DNA of 20,000 nt. Source: an uncultured virus (IMG/VR IMGVR_UViG_3300037631_006629) (lineage: Duplodnaviria; Heunggongvirae; Uroviricota; Caudoviricetes). The DNA is taken from the IMG/VR virus record IMGVR_UViG_3300037631_006629, positions 53,968-73,967 of that record; one strand, written 5' to 3'. A model generated the notes under the pieces. That model saw only the letters and a list, made by a program, of their open reading frames with translations, did no database searches and was not told where the DNA came from. A program made the position numbers and the translations under genes. Shown here in pieces: positions 3,136 to 16,727 of the stretch. Position 1 is the stretch's first letter. Each line of letters begins with the position of its first letter.

Positions 3136-3963
3136 ATGAAACTTATATTATTATTAATTTTTTCGTCTTTACTTTTAAATTGTTCTGACGAATTGTCAAA
3201 TTATCAAGGTTACGAAAATGACTTTAGGAGTAAGTCATACTTCGAAGTTAAATATGTTGGTGCTACTTGTGATTCGCAATGTATCTATTCAAGTTACGCT
3301 GTAACTTATAATTTGCAAGAAAAACAGTTTGACTGTGTTGAAGGACCTTGTGCTTGTGTAAAAGAAGGTGATGCACATACTTTATGTAGTGATAAGCCGT
3401 TAGCTGAAGATTTGTGGTCGCAACAAGAAAGCATACAACCACATAATAATCAAGTAATAGAAATACCTTATTATAATCAATATGACAACGCTAACTACCC
3501 GCATTCAACATGTCAAAATACTAGTATTGCAATGGTATTAAGCTACTTTCAATATAACATTCAACCAGATGAGATATTTTATAGGTGGGGTAAAGATATT
3601 GCACAGTCGCCTTCCGGATTAAATCAAGTATATACAAGCTATTCTGCAAACAGTGAAATTAATACTTATACTAATGCTACTCCTGAAGACTTGCGATCTG
3701 CGTTAGATAAAGGTTACATTGCAATTGTTCACGGATATTTTACATCATCAGGACATGTAATTGTCGTTAGGGGCTATGATAAGCAGCATTACTACGTTAA
3801 TGATCCTGCAGGCAAATGGGATGGTTGCTTTAAATGTGGATACACTACAGGCAATTACAATGGTATTACTAAATACTCAAAAATATCATTTGAAAACGCA
3901 GTATTCACTTCAAATGGCAGCTCTTATTTACCCGGTTGGATCCATCTTATAAAAGGTAGTTAA
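3136..3963 (+). CDS. lipoprotein with Cys-rich N-terminal region and C39-like (papain-fold) cysteine peptidase domain
   Basis: AGGAG RBS; lipoprotein-type signal MKLILLLIFSSLLLNC; PYYNQ...TCQNTSIAMVLSY (catalytic Cys), GHVIVVRGYD (His), VNDP (Asp). Confidence 0.88.
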   Translation: MKLILLLIFSSLLLNCSDELSNYQGYENDFRSKSYFEVKYVGATCDSQCIYSSYAVTYNLQEKQFDCVEGPCACVKEGDAHTLCSDKPLAEDLWSQQESIQPHNNQVIEIPYYNQYDNANYPHSTCQNTSIAMVLSYFQYNIQPDEIFYRWGKDIAQSPSGLNQVYTSYSANSEINTYTNATPEDLRSALDKGYIAIVHGYFTSSGHVIVVRGYDKQHYYVNDPAGKWDGCFKCGYTTGNYNGITKYSKISFENAVFTSNGSSYLPGWIHLIKGS

Positions 3964-3964
3964 A

Positions 3965-4639
3965 ATGAAGATTTTATTTAATGTCTGTTTAATTTTTATT
4001 ATGTTCATGATTAATTTATCATACGGTCAAAGTTATGAATGCGACAATAATTTTGGTGATTGTGGAACACCAAATCAAAGTGGTGGAGGAGGTGGAGGTG
4101 GATCGATACTAATTGCAAATACTGATTTAGGCGACACCTACCAGCATGCTGACGACTATGATGATGACGGTATTGAAGATCCTTCTGACAATTGTCCTAG
4201 GATTATGAATCCTGATCAGCTTGATCGAGACGGTGATGGAGTAGGTGATAGCTGTGATAATTGTCTTTCTATATGGAATAAAAAGCAAGAAAACACAGAT
4301 GGCGATGACAAAGGAGACTTTTGCGACGAAGACATTGATAACGACAGCATATTAAACTATTATGACGAATGTCCTTATCACTGGGGTAACGATACATGTT
4401 TCGCATTAAATGTTTTAGAAAATTTTAATAACAATAGTGATTACGAAGATGAACACGCTGAAATAGGAAATACAAAAAGTTTTAAAGAAAATGACATGTT
4501 TATCAAAGCAAGTGATAAACATGTCAAATTAAATCAAAGCTGTAATTCATCGAGATATCCAGATTTTTTCAATGTTTTTGCTTTAATCTCTATAATAATG
4601 CTAGTTATTAAAAAGAAATGTAATGAACGAAAAATTTAA
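3965..4639 (+). CDS. thrombospondin type-3 repeat (Ca-binding) surface protein, MtsC-like, with a C-terminal membrane anchor
   Basis: Signal peptide; DDDGIEDPSDNCP..NPDQLDRDGDGVGDSCDNC and DGDDKGDFCDEDIDND repeats; C-terminal SC...hydrophobic helix...KKK. Confidence 0.82.
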   Translation: MKILFNVCLIFIMFMINLSYGQSYECDNNFGDCGTPNQSGGGGGGGSILIANTDLGDTYQHADDYDDDGIEDPSDNCPRIMNPDQLDRDGDGVGDSCDNCLSIWNKKQENTDGDDKGDFCDEDIDNDSILNYYDECPYHWGNDTCFALNVLENFNNNSDYEDEHAEIGNTKSFKENDMFIKASDKHVKLNQSCNSSRYPDFFNVFALISIIMLVIKKKCNERKI

Positions 4640-8331: not shown

Positions 8332-8946
8332 TTAAATTAAGTCTTCTATCTTTTGTATGCCAAAACTTCTTAACTCTTCCGGTTGAACTTCAATATCAAT
8401 AAACTCTTTTTTAGCTTTATGCTCTTTAAAGTCACCACTTTCTAGACCTAACTTATGAGGTACACCTTCTAAATTAGCAATATTTCCGTTAAGTAAATCA
8501 GATTGATCAATATAGATTTTTACATGATGATCGAGTTTAGAACCTTTTGTTCTCAAATGAAATCTTACTTTGTCTTTAGAAGCAGAGCCAAATCTCATCC
8601 ATGCAATACCTGTGCTGTTAAAAGTATCTAAAAGATTTGAACATTCCATAAAATTTTCTGAATTTGTATCAGAAGATAATATTTCTTCGTTTAAAGTATT
8701 GAGTATGTTAAGCCACACTATATTATCTTCTGACACTTTTGTTTTTGCCCATGCTCTTCCTCTGCCTGAAAACATTGCTTTTATACTTGCATTGCTTGTA
8801 TGACTAATGTTTAGATGACAATTGATTGCTTCGTTAAATATTTCGCGAAGTAATGTAAGTTTAATTTCGTGCTGATCTTCTTCAAGCTTAGAAATAATAT
8901 TATGTACACCAGGAAAAATAATTTCTTTGATTAATTGAATGTCCAT
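8332..8946 (-). CDS. hypothetical protein, paralog of 10949..11497
   Basis: GGAGG RBS; shares GRGxxWxK, AWxRF, GSKxDH and PxKxxLE blocks with 10949..11497. Confidence 0.8.
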   Translation of the reverse strand: MDIQLIKEIIFPGVHNIISKLEEDQHEIKLTLLREIFNEAINCHLNISHTSNASIKAMFSGRGRAWAKTKVSEDNIVWLNILNTLNEEILSSDTNSENFMECSNLLDTFNSTGIAWMRFGSASKDKVRFHLRTKGSKLDHHVKIYIDQSDLLNGNIANLEGVPHKLGLESGDFKEHKAKKEFIDIEVQPEELRSFGIQKIEDLI

Positions 8947-10948: not shown

Positions 10949-11497
10949 TTAATAAGTATACTCAAGCAATCCTTCAAGCTTTAGAAATTTCTCCCATTCT
11001 TTAAGCTCGAGCTCAGTACAGCTTGAAAGCTTAGCCTCTTTTATTATCTCATTTGTTTGTCTAACAATTTCTTCAGCTTCTCCATTATTAATTGTACTGT
11101 TTTTTGTTTTTCTTCTTTTAGGCAAAGGCTTTTCTTGCTTTTTCTTTCTATCTTCTGGATTGATTTCTAACTGCATCTTTACTGGTGTATTTCCAAGCAA
11201 AGGTAAATCCTTGACTTGATTATCATTTATAATTAATACACAGTCTGGGTGATCAATTTTTGAACCTCTTTTCCTTACTTCGAAAATAACTTGAGGATTA
11301 TCTTCGCTTCCTGTAGGTTTTGAAAATCTTATCCAGGCAAAACCTTCTCTTTCAACATGCCTTACATACTCAATACCATCAGGAGAATTTGCAATTGTCA
11401 TTACTTTATTATACACATTAGAATCATTAGGTACCTTTACCCAACAATTACCTCTGCCTTTATATCGATCTCTTATTGTATTTTTAAAATTTGACAT
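10949..11497 (-). CDS. hypothetical protein, paralog of 8332..8946
   Basis: YKGRGNCWVK, GFAWIRF, FEVRKRGSKIDH, TPVKMQLE; basic linker. Confidence 0.8.
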   Translation of the reverse strand: MSNFKNTIRDRYKGRGNCWVKVPNDSNVYNKVMTIANSPDGIEYVRHVEREGFAWIRFSKPTGSEDNPQVIFEVRKRGSKIDHPDCVLIINDNQVKDLPLLGNTPVKMQLEINPEDRKKKQEKPLPKRRKTKNSTINNGEAEEIVRQTNEIIKEAKLSSCTELELKEWEKFLKLEGLLEYTY

Positions 11498-12429: not shown

Positions 12430-13269
12430 ATGAAATTTATAGTATTTTTTTTGAGTTTATTATTATTAGCTTTTGACATTCCAATTGAAAAGATAAAGTC
12501 TTCTTACGGTCATATAGAAGCTTATTATAAAGTTCAACCGAAACAAAGTTTGGATTGTGAAAATTGCTTTACATCGATGGAGGCTTTTCAAGAGATAAGA
12601 TCAATAAACAAAAAGCTAATGCAAATGGCGTATGTCAAAGCTTCTTCTTTTATAGTTAAAAAGAAAAAATCAGAAACTATTTCTATTACTTCTGAACATG
12701 TTTGCAAAGAATTAAGCGTCTTTTTAAGAGATCAAAAGTTCAAAGCTTTAGCAAAAGATTTGATGAAGACAATGGCAAAAACATATGCAGACAGTGCTTT
12801 ATATTCAGAGATATACAGAACTTATGAAATCGTTCCAAAAGCTTATATATATTCTTTTGAAGGAGTAAAGCATGAAATAACATCGATAATACTCTCAGAC
12901 AGTAAAATTGATACATGTGCAATTAAATCTTTAGGCGTCTGGGGAAAAGAAGTAACTTTTGCAAAGAGTGGTTGTTTATATGAAAAAATATTTAATATGT
13001 CTAGCTCAGGGGGATATTATCATAAAGGATCAGTAGCTCTAAGAGAAGGATATGTTAACGGAAGAGTTGAAGAGTTAAGAATACAAGAAAGAAAGTTTAA
13101 AGAAGTAAATCTGTATACTTTGCTAGTTAAACCAGGCGCATCAGGATCTGCTGTATTCAATGTTAAAGGAGAAGTATGTGGATCAGTTAATATATCTTTT
13201 ATAAAAGTTGATTTAAGTGCTGGTGCTTCTTATTCTGATCTAACTCAATTTTATAAACAATTGCGTTAA
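12430..13269 (+). CDS. secreted trypsin-like (S1) serine protease
   Basis: Signal peptide MKFIVFFLSLLLLA; triad motifs TSEHVC (His), IDTCAI (Asp), PGASGSAVFNVKGEVCG (Ser). Confidence 0.85.
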   Translation: MKFIVFFLSLLLLAFDIPIEKIKSSYGHIEAYYKVQPKQSLDCENCFTSMEAFQEIRSINKKLMQMAYVKASSFIVKKKKSETISITSEHVCKELSVFLRDQKFKALAKDLMKTMAKTYADSALYSEIYRTYEIVPKAYIYSFEGVKHEITSIILSDSKIDTCAIKSLGVWGKEVTFAKSGCLYEKIFNMSSSGGYYHKGSVALREGYVNGRVEELRIQERKFKEVNLYTLLVKPGASGSAVFNVKGEVCGSVNISFIKVDLSAGASYSDLTQFYKQLR

Positions 13270-14490: not shown

Positions 14491-15087
14491 TTAGCCCCAA
14501 GCACTTCCTTGTTTGTTTTTAAATGACTTTTTACTTTTTGAAGTAGCTGAATTACGTACGTCAGGCCATAAATAATATACTGTATAACCATGTTCAGACT
14601 TATATACAGCTTTTTGTTTTCTACCGTTAATATCAATTTCTCCATAGTAATATTTTTGCGGGTCTCCTTGATAAGGTCCAGCTGGCCATGGTACGTCGAA
14701 GCTTCCATCATTACTGACACCTATGCCATTATTTATTCCAGCTTCGTATATTAAATCGTCTTCTGTCATTACAATATCACCAACATCAACATCACTGGGG
14801 AAGCCAGACATACCTTTGATATGCTTTGTTAGACTTTCAATTTCAATTTGATAACCATATTCTTCATTAATCATTTCTTCATCACCATGCTGATCAAACC
14901 TGTCGTAGCAATAAAAAATATCTTTACCATGAATATCTTCTAACTCTTTCAACAAATCTTTTGCTTTTTTTGTAGGATTGTGTCTAGTTCTTGTTATAGA
15001 TCCTCCTTGAGATTCGTTAACTTTACTTTTAAATTCGAACTTTCGCCATTCTTTTAAGATTTTTTTTGTCTCATTAGTTTTTTTCAT
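14491..15087 (-). CDS. hypothetical protein with N-terminal ILKEWRKF and C-terminal GSAWG motifs (possible internal virion protein)
   Basis: 198 aa, AAGGA RBS; terminal motifs shared with 15984..16727. Confidence 0.75.
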   Translation of the reverse strand: MKKTNETKKILKEWRKFEFKSKVNESQGGSITRTRHNPTKKAKDLLKELEDIHGKDIFYCYDRFDQHGDEEMINEEYGYQIEIESLTKHIKGMSGFPSDVDVGDIVMTEDDLIYEAGINNGIGVSNDGSFDVPWPAGPYQGDPQKYYYGEIDINGRKQKAVYKSEHGYTVYYLWPDVRNSATSKSKKSFKNKQGSAWG

Positions 15088-15124
15088 GTTGCATCCTTTA
15101 TTTGCTTTCTATAATAAATATAAT

Positions 15125-15355
15125 CTATATATATAAAATTACGTATTTACCAAACCATATATCAAAAGTACTAATTAAATCTTCATAGTTACTCATCTTC
15201 ATTGTTTTGATAATATCTTCTATTATTATTTTGTCATAACCTAGCTGTTTTCCCAGGCTTTCAGCAAGTGACATCAAGTAATATGCATTACCATTAGGCC
15301 CACTAAGGTCAACTTCTATGTGTCTGGCAGGTTTTTCTTCTATACTTTTAATCAT
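15125..15355 (-). CDS. conserved phage hypothetical protein
   Basis: IEVDLSGPNGNAYYLM...NYEDLISTFDIWFG pattern that I recognise from large myoviruses. Confidence 0.75.
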   Translation of the reverse strand: MIKSIEEKPARHIEVDLSGPNGNAYYLMSLAESLGKQLGYDKIIIEDIIKTMKMSNYEDLISTFDIWFGKYVILYI

Positions 15356-15358
15356 ATT

Positions 15359-15622
15359 TCATTCCTTAAAGCTTATAAGTTTAAACATGTCATTTGATTT
15401 GCTGCTAAATAACTCACTTGCATACACTGACTTAAATTTAATCTTTCTGTTATTTATTAAGAATACTAAAGACCTTTCTTTATAGGTTGCTCCAAAGTTA
15501 TTATCTAAAACTAAAAGTATACTTCCTTCTTTTATTACTTTATGATTAAAATGATCTTGCCAAAAGTTAAAAGTTTTTTTAACAAACAACAAGTCGTTTT
15601 CTTTTACTTCGTTTATGATCAT
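15359..15622 (-). CDS. hypothetical protein
   Basis: 87-aa ORF in an operon; VKENDLLFV. Confidence 0.65.
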   Translation of the reverse strand: MIINEVKENDLLFVKKTFNFWQDHFNHKVIKEGSILLVLDNNFGATYKERSLVFLINNRKIKFKSVYASELFSSKSNDMFKLISFKE

Positions 15623-15630
15623 AAAATTAT

Positions 15631-15897
15631 CTATTTAACTATAAAACTATTCTTGCCTTTTTTAAAGCTTTGATAAACTGATTTTTCTACTAAAGCCCAG
15701 TATTTTTTACAACTTACATTAGCAAACATTTTTTCTCTATTTCTATAATGATCTATACCATTAAGAAACTTAATGCAGCCTAAAGTTTTTACTTCTTTTT
15801 CAAAGACACCTATACATACAGCATAAACATAATCTTCTAACTCTAGACAGCTTTTTAGATAGTTTATTTCTCGAGAAAGCTGTTTATAATTATTCAA
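15631..15897 (-). CDS. hypothetical protein
   Basis: TTG start with AGGAG RBS. Confidence 0.65.
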   Translation of the reverse strand: MNNYKQLSREINYLKSCLELEDYVYAVCIGVFEKEVKTLGCIKFLNGIDHYRNREKMFANVSCKKYWALVEKSVYQSFKKGKNSFIVK

Positions 15898-15983
15898 TAC
15901 ATATCTCCTTAATGTTATGTCAAATCTAATTAAACCTAAAATAGATAGTTATAGATATACTATGAAAAAGGTAATAGACGATT

Positions 15984-16727
15984 ATGAGAAAAGTCATTCA
16001 GACAAAAGAAGTTTTAAAAGAATGGAATTCTTTTTTAATAAAAGAATCAAATGCTGATAGAGTAAAAAGGATGATTGATGATCTAGAAAGCTTTGGAAAA
16101 CAAATTCATATTACAGAGCCAAGTAAAAGCGTTATTGTAATTACTTATGGAAAAAATTACACTAGCGGTAATCGAGATGCATCAAAAAACTTATTTGGAC
16201 AGATACGCTGTTCAGACACTTCAGCGTCATATGATGATAAACAAAAAGGCATTGGAGCAGGAGAAACAAACTCTTGTTGGGAAGTTGATTTAACTAGTCA
16301 CACTACTAAGGGAATGGGTCCTTTGCTTTATGAAGTGCTTATTGAATATATTAGCAATATAAAAAGAGCTTCGCTTAAACCAGATGCATCCTCAGTTTCT
16401 GATTTAGCAAAAAATGTGTGGAATAAGTTTAACGATAGACCGCAGAACGATGTTAAAAAAATTCAGTTAGATGTTGGTGAAAAAACTGTATATAGATTTA
16501 AGAGATACAAAAACCAAGATGTTAAACAACTAACACCTGACAATGTTGAAGATGATACGATGCAGGATTCATCAATAAGAGACAAAGGTTTTGATGCTTG
16601 GGAAGAAAGTGCTTTAAGTAAAGCCTATAAAAAACTAGATATGCCGATTATAGATGAACTTAAAGCTAGAAATCTAATTATAATGCCTAAAACATTTAAA
16701 AGCAAACTAGGCAGTGCATGGGGTTAA
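15984..16727 (+). CDS. putative GNAT-fold protein with N-terminal VLKEWNSF and C-terminal GSAWG motifs
   Basis: KGMGPLLYEVLIEY resembles GNAT acetyl-CoA-binding motif A, followed by SVSDLAKNVWNKF (motif B-like). Confidence 0.6.
   Translation: MRKVIQTKEVLKEWNSFLIKESNADRVKRMIDDLESFGKQIHITEPSKSVIVITYGKNYTSGNRDASKNLFGQIRCSDTSASYDDKQKGIGAGETNSCWEVDLTSHTTKGMGPLLYEVLIEYISNIKRASLKPDASSVSDLAKNVWNKFNDRPQNDVKKIQLDVGEKTVYRFKRYKNQDVKQLTPDNVEDDTMQDSSIRDKGFDAWEESALSKAYKKLDMPIIDELKARNLIIMPKTFKSKLGSAWG

Follow-up and report, generated by a model that had tools for sequence, protein, structure and literature searches.

The 20,000-nucleotide stretch of DNA analysed here (hereafter the window) is the final 20 kb, positions 53,968 to 73,967, of a 73,967-base record with 30% G+C from an uncultured virus of the Caudoviricetes (IMG/VR IMGVR_UViG_3300037631_006629), and it contains two genes whose products share both of their ends and have unrelated middles. 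The first gene, on the minus strand at 14491..15087, encodes P0001, a protein of 198 residues whose translation starts MKKTNETKKILKEWRKF...VNES and ends KKSFKNKQGSAWG. The second, on the plus strand at 15984..16727, encodes P0002, a protein of 247 residues that starts MRKVIQTKEVLKEWNSFLIKES and ends PKTFKSKLGSAWG. Both proteins begin with a leader that is predicted to be helical and amphipathic (the N-tag) and finish with a short motif (the C-tag). The leader of P0001 comprises residues 1-25 (MKKTNETKKILKEWRKFEFKSKVNE; 15013..15087, minus strand), resembles a capsid-targeting sequence (CTS) and has a putative cut site after a conserved [LIV]-N-E at residues 23-25. That of P0002 comprises residues 1-21 (MRKVIQTKEVLKEWNSFLIKE; 15984..16046, plus strand) and has I-K-E at its end. 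The C-tag reads SFKNKQGSAWG in P0001, where it follows a disordered, S/K-rich linker (14494..14526, minus strand), and TFKSKLGSAWG in P0002 (16692..16724, plus strand).

A preliminary description of this locus had proposed that two unrelated cargo domains are framed by the same terminal tags, and comparison of the two proteins bears this out. BLASTP between P0001 and P0002 pairs residues 1-33 with residues 1-29 (E 4e-4) and, at the other end, the 12 final residues of each (E 2e-3), and nothing else. Likewise, hhalign of profiles built for the two families (family 1 being that of P0002 and family 2 that of P0001) aligns 18 N-terminal columns and nothing else. Full-length homology is ruled out by this restriction of both alignments to the ends. 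The preliminary description had also pointed to different codons under the same tag, and this holds as well, for GSAWG is encoded by GGA AGT GCT TGG GGC in one gene and GGC AGT GCA TGG GGT in the other, with three third positions differing, as would be expected of a tag under protein-level selection. When all stop-to-stop frames of at least 20 residues in the 73,967-base record were considered, those of P0001 and P0002 were the only ones ending in AWG.

Homologues were collected by word-index searches at E ≤0.01, which gave 27 proteins for P0002 and 18 for P0001 (queries included), all of them from marine metagenomes. Every one of the 22 family-1 sequences has W14, and all 17 family-2 sequences have E13, W14 and F17. 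Of these, 12 of the 22 family-1 and 14 of the 17 family-2 sequences end in a basic tail of the form (F/Y)K..(L/Q)G(G/S)(A/V)W(G/S/N). It is replaced by a long acidic tail in three sequences of each family and is absent in seven family-1 members. Because the tags are conserved in homologues, a chance resemblance between the ends of P0001 and P0002 can be excluded.

Both tags are located outside the predicted folds, in stretches of low model confidence. The AlphaFold model of P0002 has a mean confidence score (pLDDT) of 82.9, with values below 50 at residues 1-4, 6-22 and 239-247, the last of these stretches falling within the C-tag. The model of P0001 has a mean of 72.0, with values below 50 at residues 18-29, 178-189 and 191-198. 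Scans of Pfam and PHROGs gave nothing significant for either protein, and P0002 has no sequence match in the PDB. In a representative-wide structural search, most of the best 50 rows are annotated as acetyl- or acyltransferases (Z 4.8-6.4) and match the P0002 core (residues ~32-225; 16077..16658, plus strand), GNAT-fold toxins are among the fold matches, and Foldseek gave weak matches, the best with an E-value of 0.07. By these matches the core has a GNAT-like acyl-CoA N-acyltransferase fold (CoA, coenzyme A). An invariant GMGPLLYE stretch is also present in this family and resembles a CoA-binding motif by eye only. The core of P0001 is acidic, with an isoelectric point (pI) of 4.8 when leader and tail are left out; Foldseek gave no clear fold for the protein, and its core has no usable match in the protein atlas.

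The N-tag is found well beyond these two genes. Five open reading frames (ORFs) of the record have the motif, namely P0001, P0002, a 109-residue protein, a 271-residue paralogue of P0002 that has no C-tail, and a 552-residue protein that is interrupted by the start of the record. A scan of viral contigs with a peptide-derived DNA pattern (K.[ILV][LI][KN]EW[NRK].FL) gave at least 117 loci. Among the matches listed, to which the counts in this paragraph refer, the N-tag is at the very N-terminus in 68 of 76 in-frame matches, mostly right behind the start Met. It is terminated by (L/I)xE, at positions that the pattern left free, in 56 of 58 unique N-terminal instances, the Glu lying two residues beyond FL in 46 of them and three residues beyond in 10. 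The proteins behind the tag are diverse, with 47 complete ORFs forming 16 BLAST clusters, the largest of which is an S-adenosylmethionine (SAM) lyase (PF23780, E 4e-16, above the cut-off). Additionally, a related contig has four consecutive genes that start MKL(L/V)xENWRK, one of them with a nucleotidyltransferase domain, just upstream of the genes for terminase, portal and S77 protease.

Among cultured phages, homologues of the SAM-lyase cargo carry leaders of only 10 residues, MKTFSEFLGE in Paraglaciecola GD virus 1 and MKDFDSFLEE in ORF6 of the T4-like cyanophage S-CREM2. The marine leader MKKILNEWKKFLKE, followed by SSLSRL, aligns with MKTFSEFLGE, followed by SGLSRI, of the Paraglaciecola virus and with the S-CREM2 ORF6 leader. 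This alignment places W8, F11, L12 and E14 of the marine leader at residues 4, 7, 8 and 10 of the short leaders, and F, L, E and the next S are invariant across marine and short SAM-lyase leaders. The leader of P0002 ends in FLIKE and so has one residue more ahead of the Glu than the T4 register. According to a review of T4 (PMC9026906), T4 leaders have 10-19 residues, the initial 10 of internal protein III (IPIII) being enough; targeting is determined mainly by residues 4 and 7, processing by residues 8 and 10, and T4-like phages may generally package varied proteins by means of such a leader. Virion mass spectrometry of S-CREM2, as reported in PMC10665884, detected ORF6, a SAM hydrolase, together with a kinase-like protein. 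A match to Peptidase_S77, the family of T4 gp21, was present in 7 of 13 searched records with N-tag proteins and in all four of those with a completeness of 90% or more; completeness in the six records without such a match ranges from 11 to 81%, and these include a 46% fragment of the genome of the phage studied here. By comparison, the N-tag is thus well supported as an extended capsid-targeting leader of T4 type because of its N-terminal position, its aromatic-xx-F-(L/I)-x-E register, its (L/I)xE site and its short-leader orthologues, one of which is found in virions. As a separate observation, three of four gp21-type proteases (L127, L128, L129 and L143) themselves have a leader-like start, M.K.LL.E(F/Y).(A/E)LC(E/P), which ends in L-C-E in two.

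The C-tag has the consensus P.K.FKSxLGGAWG and was sought as a DNA pattern, FK.[KQRS]LG[GS]AW[GSN]-stop, in viral contigs and metagenome contigs. The viral contigs gave five loci, none of which is real, since two are chance ends of 27- and 51-residue frames and three have no frame. The metagenome contigs gave 12 loci, 11 of which are ORF ends in low-G+C contigs of this phage lineage and belong to three families; the twelfth, in a contig of 51% G+C, was rejected as a chance match. The third family includes P0048, a protein of 197 residues with the leader MDNKEFKLLIEGFDKFLLSE and the tail PKKQFKSSLGGAWG, and its homologue P0050. P0048 is encoded ~28.5 kb beyond P0002 in the same genome, where it is surrounded by other leader-bearing genes, and another protein, P0049, is a divergent family-2 member (27% identity). 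When profiles were compared with hhalign, family 3 aligned with family 2 over 17 tail columns only and with family 1 over the leader only, weakly. Remote homology between families 2 and 3 was considered on account of a BLASTP row and rejected, as that row is weak (E 0.002) and hhalign aligns the tail alone. When 1.84 billion representatives were searched with a profile of the last 30 residues, five matches at E ≤0.001 were obtained, three real ones in families 2 and 3 and two spurious repeats; the sensitivity of this search is low, because family 1 was not recovered. We take the C-tag, known on three cargo families in one phage lineage, to be a real linear motif that is under protein-level selection and restricted to this lineage. 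A full-text literature search with the motif strings of the N- or C-tag gave no relevant paper.

The C-tag is preceded by a P/S/Q/K-rich linker. With a pI of about 10 the tail is basic, in contrast to the acidic cores of families 2 and 3 (pI 4.4-4.9). Its last residue among homologues is G, S, N or D, and the acidic variants end in I or S. A conserved (L/I)xE between core and C-tag was not found in families 1-3. The tails of different families may also change together. For example, family-2 and family-3 proteins of one metagenome series end in identical PAKTFKSSLGGAWD, with eight synonymous or stop positions differing underneath, so that recent gene conversion does not account for the identity. 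Similarly, the acidic tails of families 1 and 2 occur in clusters with a common longest contig of 118,793 bases, and these members are therefore probably from one genome. This co-variation is coarse, amounting to a charge switch, and is not statistically firm. In a separate observation around the third C-tag gene, two ~275-residue paralogues (L147 1544-2383 and 3065-3877; starts MLLKEYVSFYIKE and MILEKYVKNYLIE) flank it; they have a D-M-H-x-G-N stretch that by eye looks like a kinase catalytic loop, and no Pfam or PDB match.

The record encodes a family-B DNA polymerase, GroEL, a sigma factor, a PurZ-like enzyme, a ligase and a Dam methylase, and family scans recognised no head genes within its 73,967 bases. 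A 115,535-base IMG/VR record (CheckV completeness 46%) shares 57,018 bases with it at 99.998% identity. This second record adds ribonucleotide reductase, thymidylate synthase, ClpP, a UvsX-like recombinase and a gp32-like single-stranded DNA-binding protein, as well as a T4-type baseplate protein, a sheath, a gp19-like tube protein and a sheath stabiliser by a weak gp15-like match. Additionally, a metagenome contig of 254,264 bases matches the record at 100% identity across 6,033 bases. The T4-type structural and replication genes and the length of this contig mark the phage as a distant T4-like jumbo myovirus of ~250 kb, of which ~132 kb, without the head module, was read here. No match was found among GenBank phages, either by DNA or by protein. 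Among promoter motifs, TATAGAT is not consistently present upstream of the tagged genes.

We consider it most likely, with a probability of about 0.6, that P0001 and P0002 are capsid-packaged internal or ejected proteins of this distant T4-like jumbo myovirus, each equipped with an extended T4-type leader and a separate C-terminal docking handle. The amphipathic helix of the N-tag would dock the protein on the prohead scaffolding core, and a gp21-type prohead protease would then cut behind the Glu and so remove the leader. The C-tag, at the tip of its disordered linker, would be a short linear motif in its own right, independent of the leader, and it probably stays on the mature protein because no (L/I)xE site lies between it and the core. 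Its probable use there is to dock the protein on one shared, lineage-specific partner, perhaps a component of the head interior or of ejection. The packaging of P0001 and P0002 themselves is what we infer from the comparison with other leaders. To this extent the preliminary interpretation is partly supported: its packaging leader of T4 type stands by comparison, its C-terminal tag is real and marks yet another unrelated family, and its suggestion of conjugation through the terminal Gly does not stand, as discussed below.

Several observations weigh against this interpretation. Neither a head module nor an S77 protease was found in the ~132 kb read of the phage itself, whose sole protease-like head candidate is a full-length ClpP homologue (PF00574, E 6e-26; G001 67837-68439, minus strand) with no head module around it. 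P0001 has no L or I right behind F17, its candidate site V-N-E lying 8 residues further on. The exact [KN]EW[NRK]xF core is present on one gene per genome in three near-complete T4-like genomes, and the N-tag is therefore one leader variant among several rather than a universal signal. The T4 late-promoter octamer (TATAAATA) occurs at chance in the window (6 seen versus 5.04 expected). No further C-tag family came out of the viral-contig pattern scan or the C-tail profile search. Finally, for five pairs of proteins inferred to share a contig, the observed tail similarity was reached by 10 of 120 permutations, and within the four basic-tail lineages by 10 of 24; co-variation on a fine scale was rejected as not significant.

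Other explanations of the tags have to be weighed against packaging with a lineage-specific handle. It is unlikely, in our view, that the N-leader alone serves packaging and that the C-tag acts after ejection, when it would be the short linear motif by which the delivered enzymes dock on a host hub protein. A disordered tail on a flexible linker, with no cleavage site ahead of it, would survive maturation; furthermore, the cargos look effector-like, with a GNAT fold in one case and small acidic proteins in others. However, in both families of one lineage the basic tail has given way to a long acidic one, which suits co-evolution with a partner better than docking on a conserved host hub, and no known host-binding motif was recognised. 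Quite improbable is the view that the N-tag is a general amphipathic helix involved in oligomerisation, membrane association or expression, with its Glu incidental. Such a helix would agree with the predicted structure of the leader and with a phage in which protease and head genes have not been seen, but it would leave unexplained why (L/I)xE follows the tag almost without exception, why its register is that of the short T4-like leaders of orthologues, a virion protein among them, and why each of the four near-complete genomes searched that have an N-tag encodes an S77 protease.

A role for the tags in turnover has little to commend it. The C-tail, and perhaps the leader, would be a degron for, e.g., the phage ClpP together with a host unfoldase, and would limit the amount of free, potentially harmful enzyme. 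Unstructured C-terminal tails are typical degron sites, the phage does encode a full-length ClpP, and toxins are among the GNAT-fold matches of P0002. Yet nothing ties ClpP to these tails, the N-tag specifically and independently resembles a capsid-targeting leader, and the existence of both basic and acidic tail variants is hard to reconcile with one unfoldase. Ubiquitin-like conjugation or transpeptidation through the last Gly of GSAWG, although both window proteins do end in Gly, can practically be dismissed since the last residue varies among G, S, N and D, the long acidic tails of some relatives end in I or S, Gly-Gly is not conserved, and family scans found no E1-, E2- or sortase-like gene.

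Packaging with two separate tags leads to a broader and tentative possibility, that of a layered address code in marine T4-like phages. A widespread N-leader would load many different enzymes (a SAM lyase, the GNAT-like protein, a nucleotidyltransferase and others) and, in one jumbo lineage, a C-terminal FKSxLGGAWG handle that co-evolves with a phage partner would sort a subset of this cargo by place, by order of ejection or by activity state. If true, this would constitute a second, independent addressing layer for proteins delivered by phages. If the leader works as proposed, then the pattern M(x)0-7 K x [IL][LI][KN]EW[KRN]xFL x(1-2) E flags proteins that are probably injected by uncultured marine T4-like phages, and thereby offers a sequence-only catalogue of candidate anti-defence effectors of the first minute of infection, with SAM lyases and a GNAT-like enzyme already among them. 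The C-terminal handle, for its part, would be the first address at this end to be common to such cargos, and could reveal a sorting of packaged proteins within the head or at ejection. Both tags could also become packaging handles in phage engineering.

Other leaders and leader-like ends were noticed in the same material. A second recurrent N-terminal leader, MKITESRLRRIIRKVLLE or M(K/R)(I/L)TE(S/A)RLR..IR..(I/L).E, also ends in (I/L)xE and is found on several genes (record positions 8549-8896, minus strand; L147 1084-1401; L145 1072-1491, 1666-2346 and 4486-4803; L006 10365-10640); the copy in L147 has FKRYLGM at its end, a sequence reminiscent of a truncated C-tag. Outside the window, at record positions 42226-42861 (minus strand), two adjacent tiny lysine-rich proteins of 112 and 95 residues start MNDLFLLEEFI(R/K)EALIDE and continue into KKKK runs. 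One of them matches DUF5824, and from their sequences both look like classic basic internal proteins; their EEFI(R/K)E leader speaks in favour of packaging by leaders in this phage. Within the window, a 182-residue protein (10949-11497, minus strand) ends in ...ELELKEWEKFLKLEGLLEYTY and thus has the W-x-x-F-L core of the leader at its C-terminus, where it may be a C-terminal targeting element; its homologue in L004 (7834-8418, minus strand) ends in ...AWEKFLEVEGLLDDTI.

The surrounding genes include others of interest. In the window, a Peptidase_C39_2 protein with a lipoprotein-like signal sequence (3136-3963, plus strand) adjoins the gene for a secreted protein with thrombospondin type 3 repeats (3965-4639, plus strand), a pairing that is unusual for a phage. 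A 279-residue protein with a signal peptide (12430-13269, plus strand) has a sub-threshold match to Trypsin_2 (22.4 bits versus a cut-off of 27.6). Elsewhere in the record, the GroEL-like chaperonin (30546-32204, plus strand) and the sigma factor (32434-33180, plus strand) are both phage-encoded, and self-matches at 18- and 36-base offsets indicate a short tandem repeat at about 33611-33746. The PurZ-type adenylosuccinate synthetase gene (46660-47859, plus strand; PHROG family match, E 6.5e-78) adjoins that of a dehydrogenase (45586-46656, plus strand), and this match hints at modified (2-aminoadenine) DNA.

The literature that we found on capsid-targeting sequences consists of work on T4 and on giant phages. 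The closest likeness is to the CTS of the T4 internal proteins IPI to IPIII (PMC9026906), which is likewise a short N-terminal leader on unrelated cargos, with aromatic residues at positions 4 and 7, L or I at 8 and Glu at 10; gp21 cuts the leader after this Glu, and the cargos are diverse and often directed against host defence. The leader described here differs in its length of 14-25 residues, in an extra N-terminal (T)KxIL(K/N)E segment and in having W for the first aromatic residue. It is also a leader of uncultured marine phages, including a ~254 kb jumbo lineage, and its cleavage and packaging are predicted. The giant phages SPN3US, phiKZ and 201phi2-1 are jumbo myoviruses as well, and PMC5694885 describes propeptides of their packaged head and ejection proteins that are cut after Glu by a gp21-related protease. 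Unlike the leader described here, these propeptides are long, with A/S/G-x-E motifs, and do not form a short tag common to several proteins. The same source portrays T4 Alt, an ejected ADP-ribosyltransferase, as a packaged enzyme with both N- and C-terminal extensions whose roles (targeting, tethering or control) are open, its C-terminal piece of 63 residues being removed at an LTE site (PMC5694885). Alt is thus similar in its architecture to the proteins studied here, whereas the C-tag has only ~12 residues, is common to three families and is not preceded by an (L/I)xE site. In encapsulin systems, a short conserved C-terminal peptide on a flexible linker addresses unrelated cargos into a shell with an HK97 fold. 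The C-tag has no sequence likeness to these cargo-loading peptides but resembles them in its short C-terminal form at the end of a linker.

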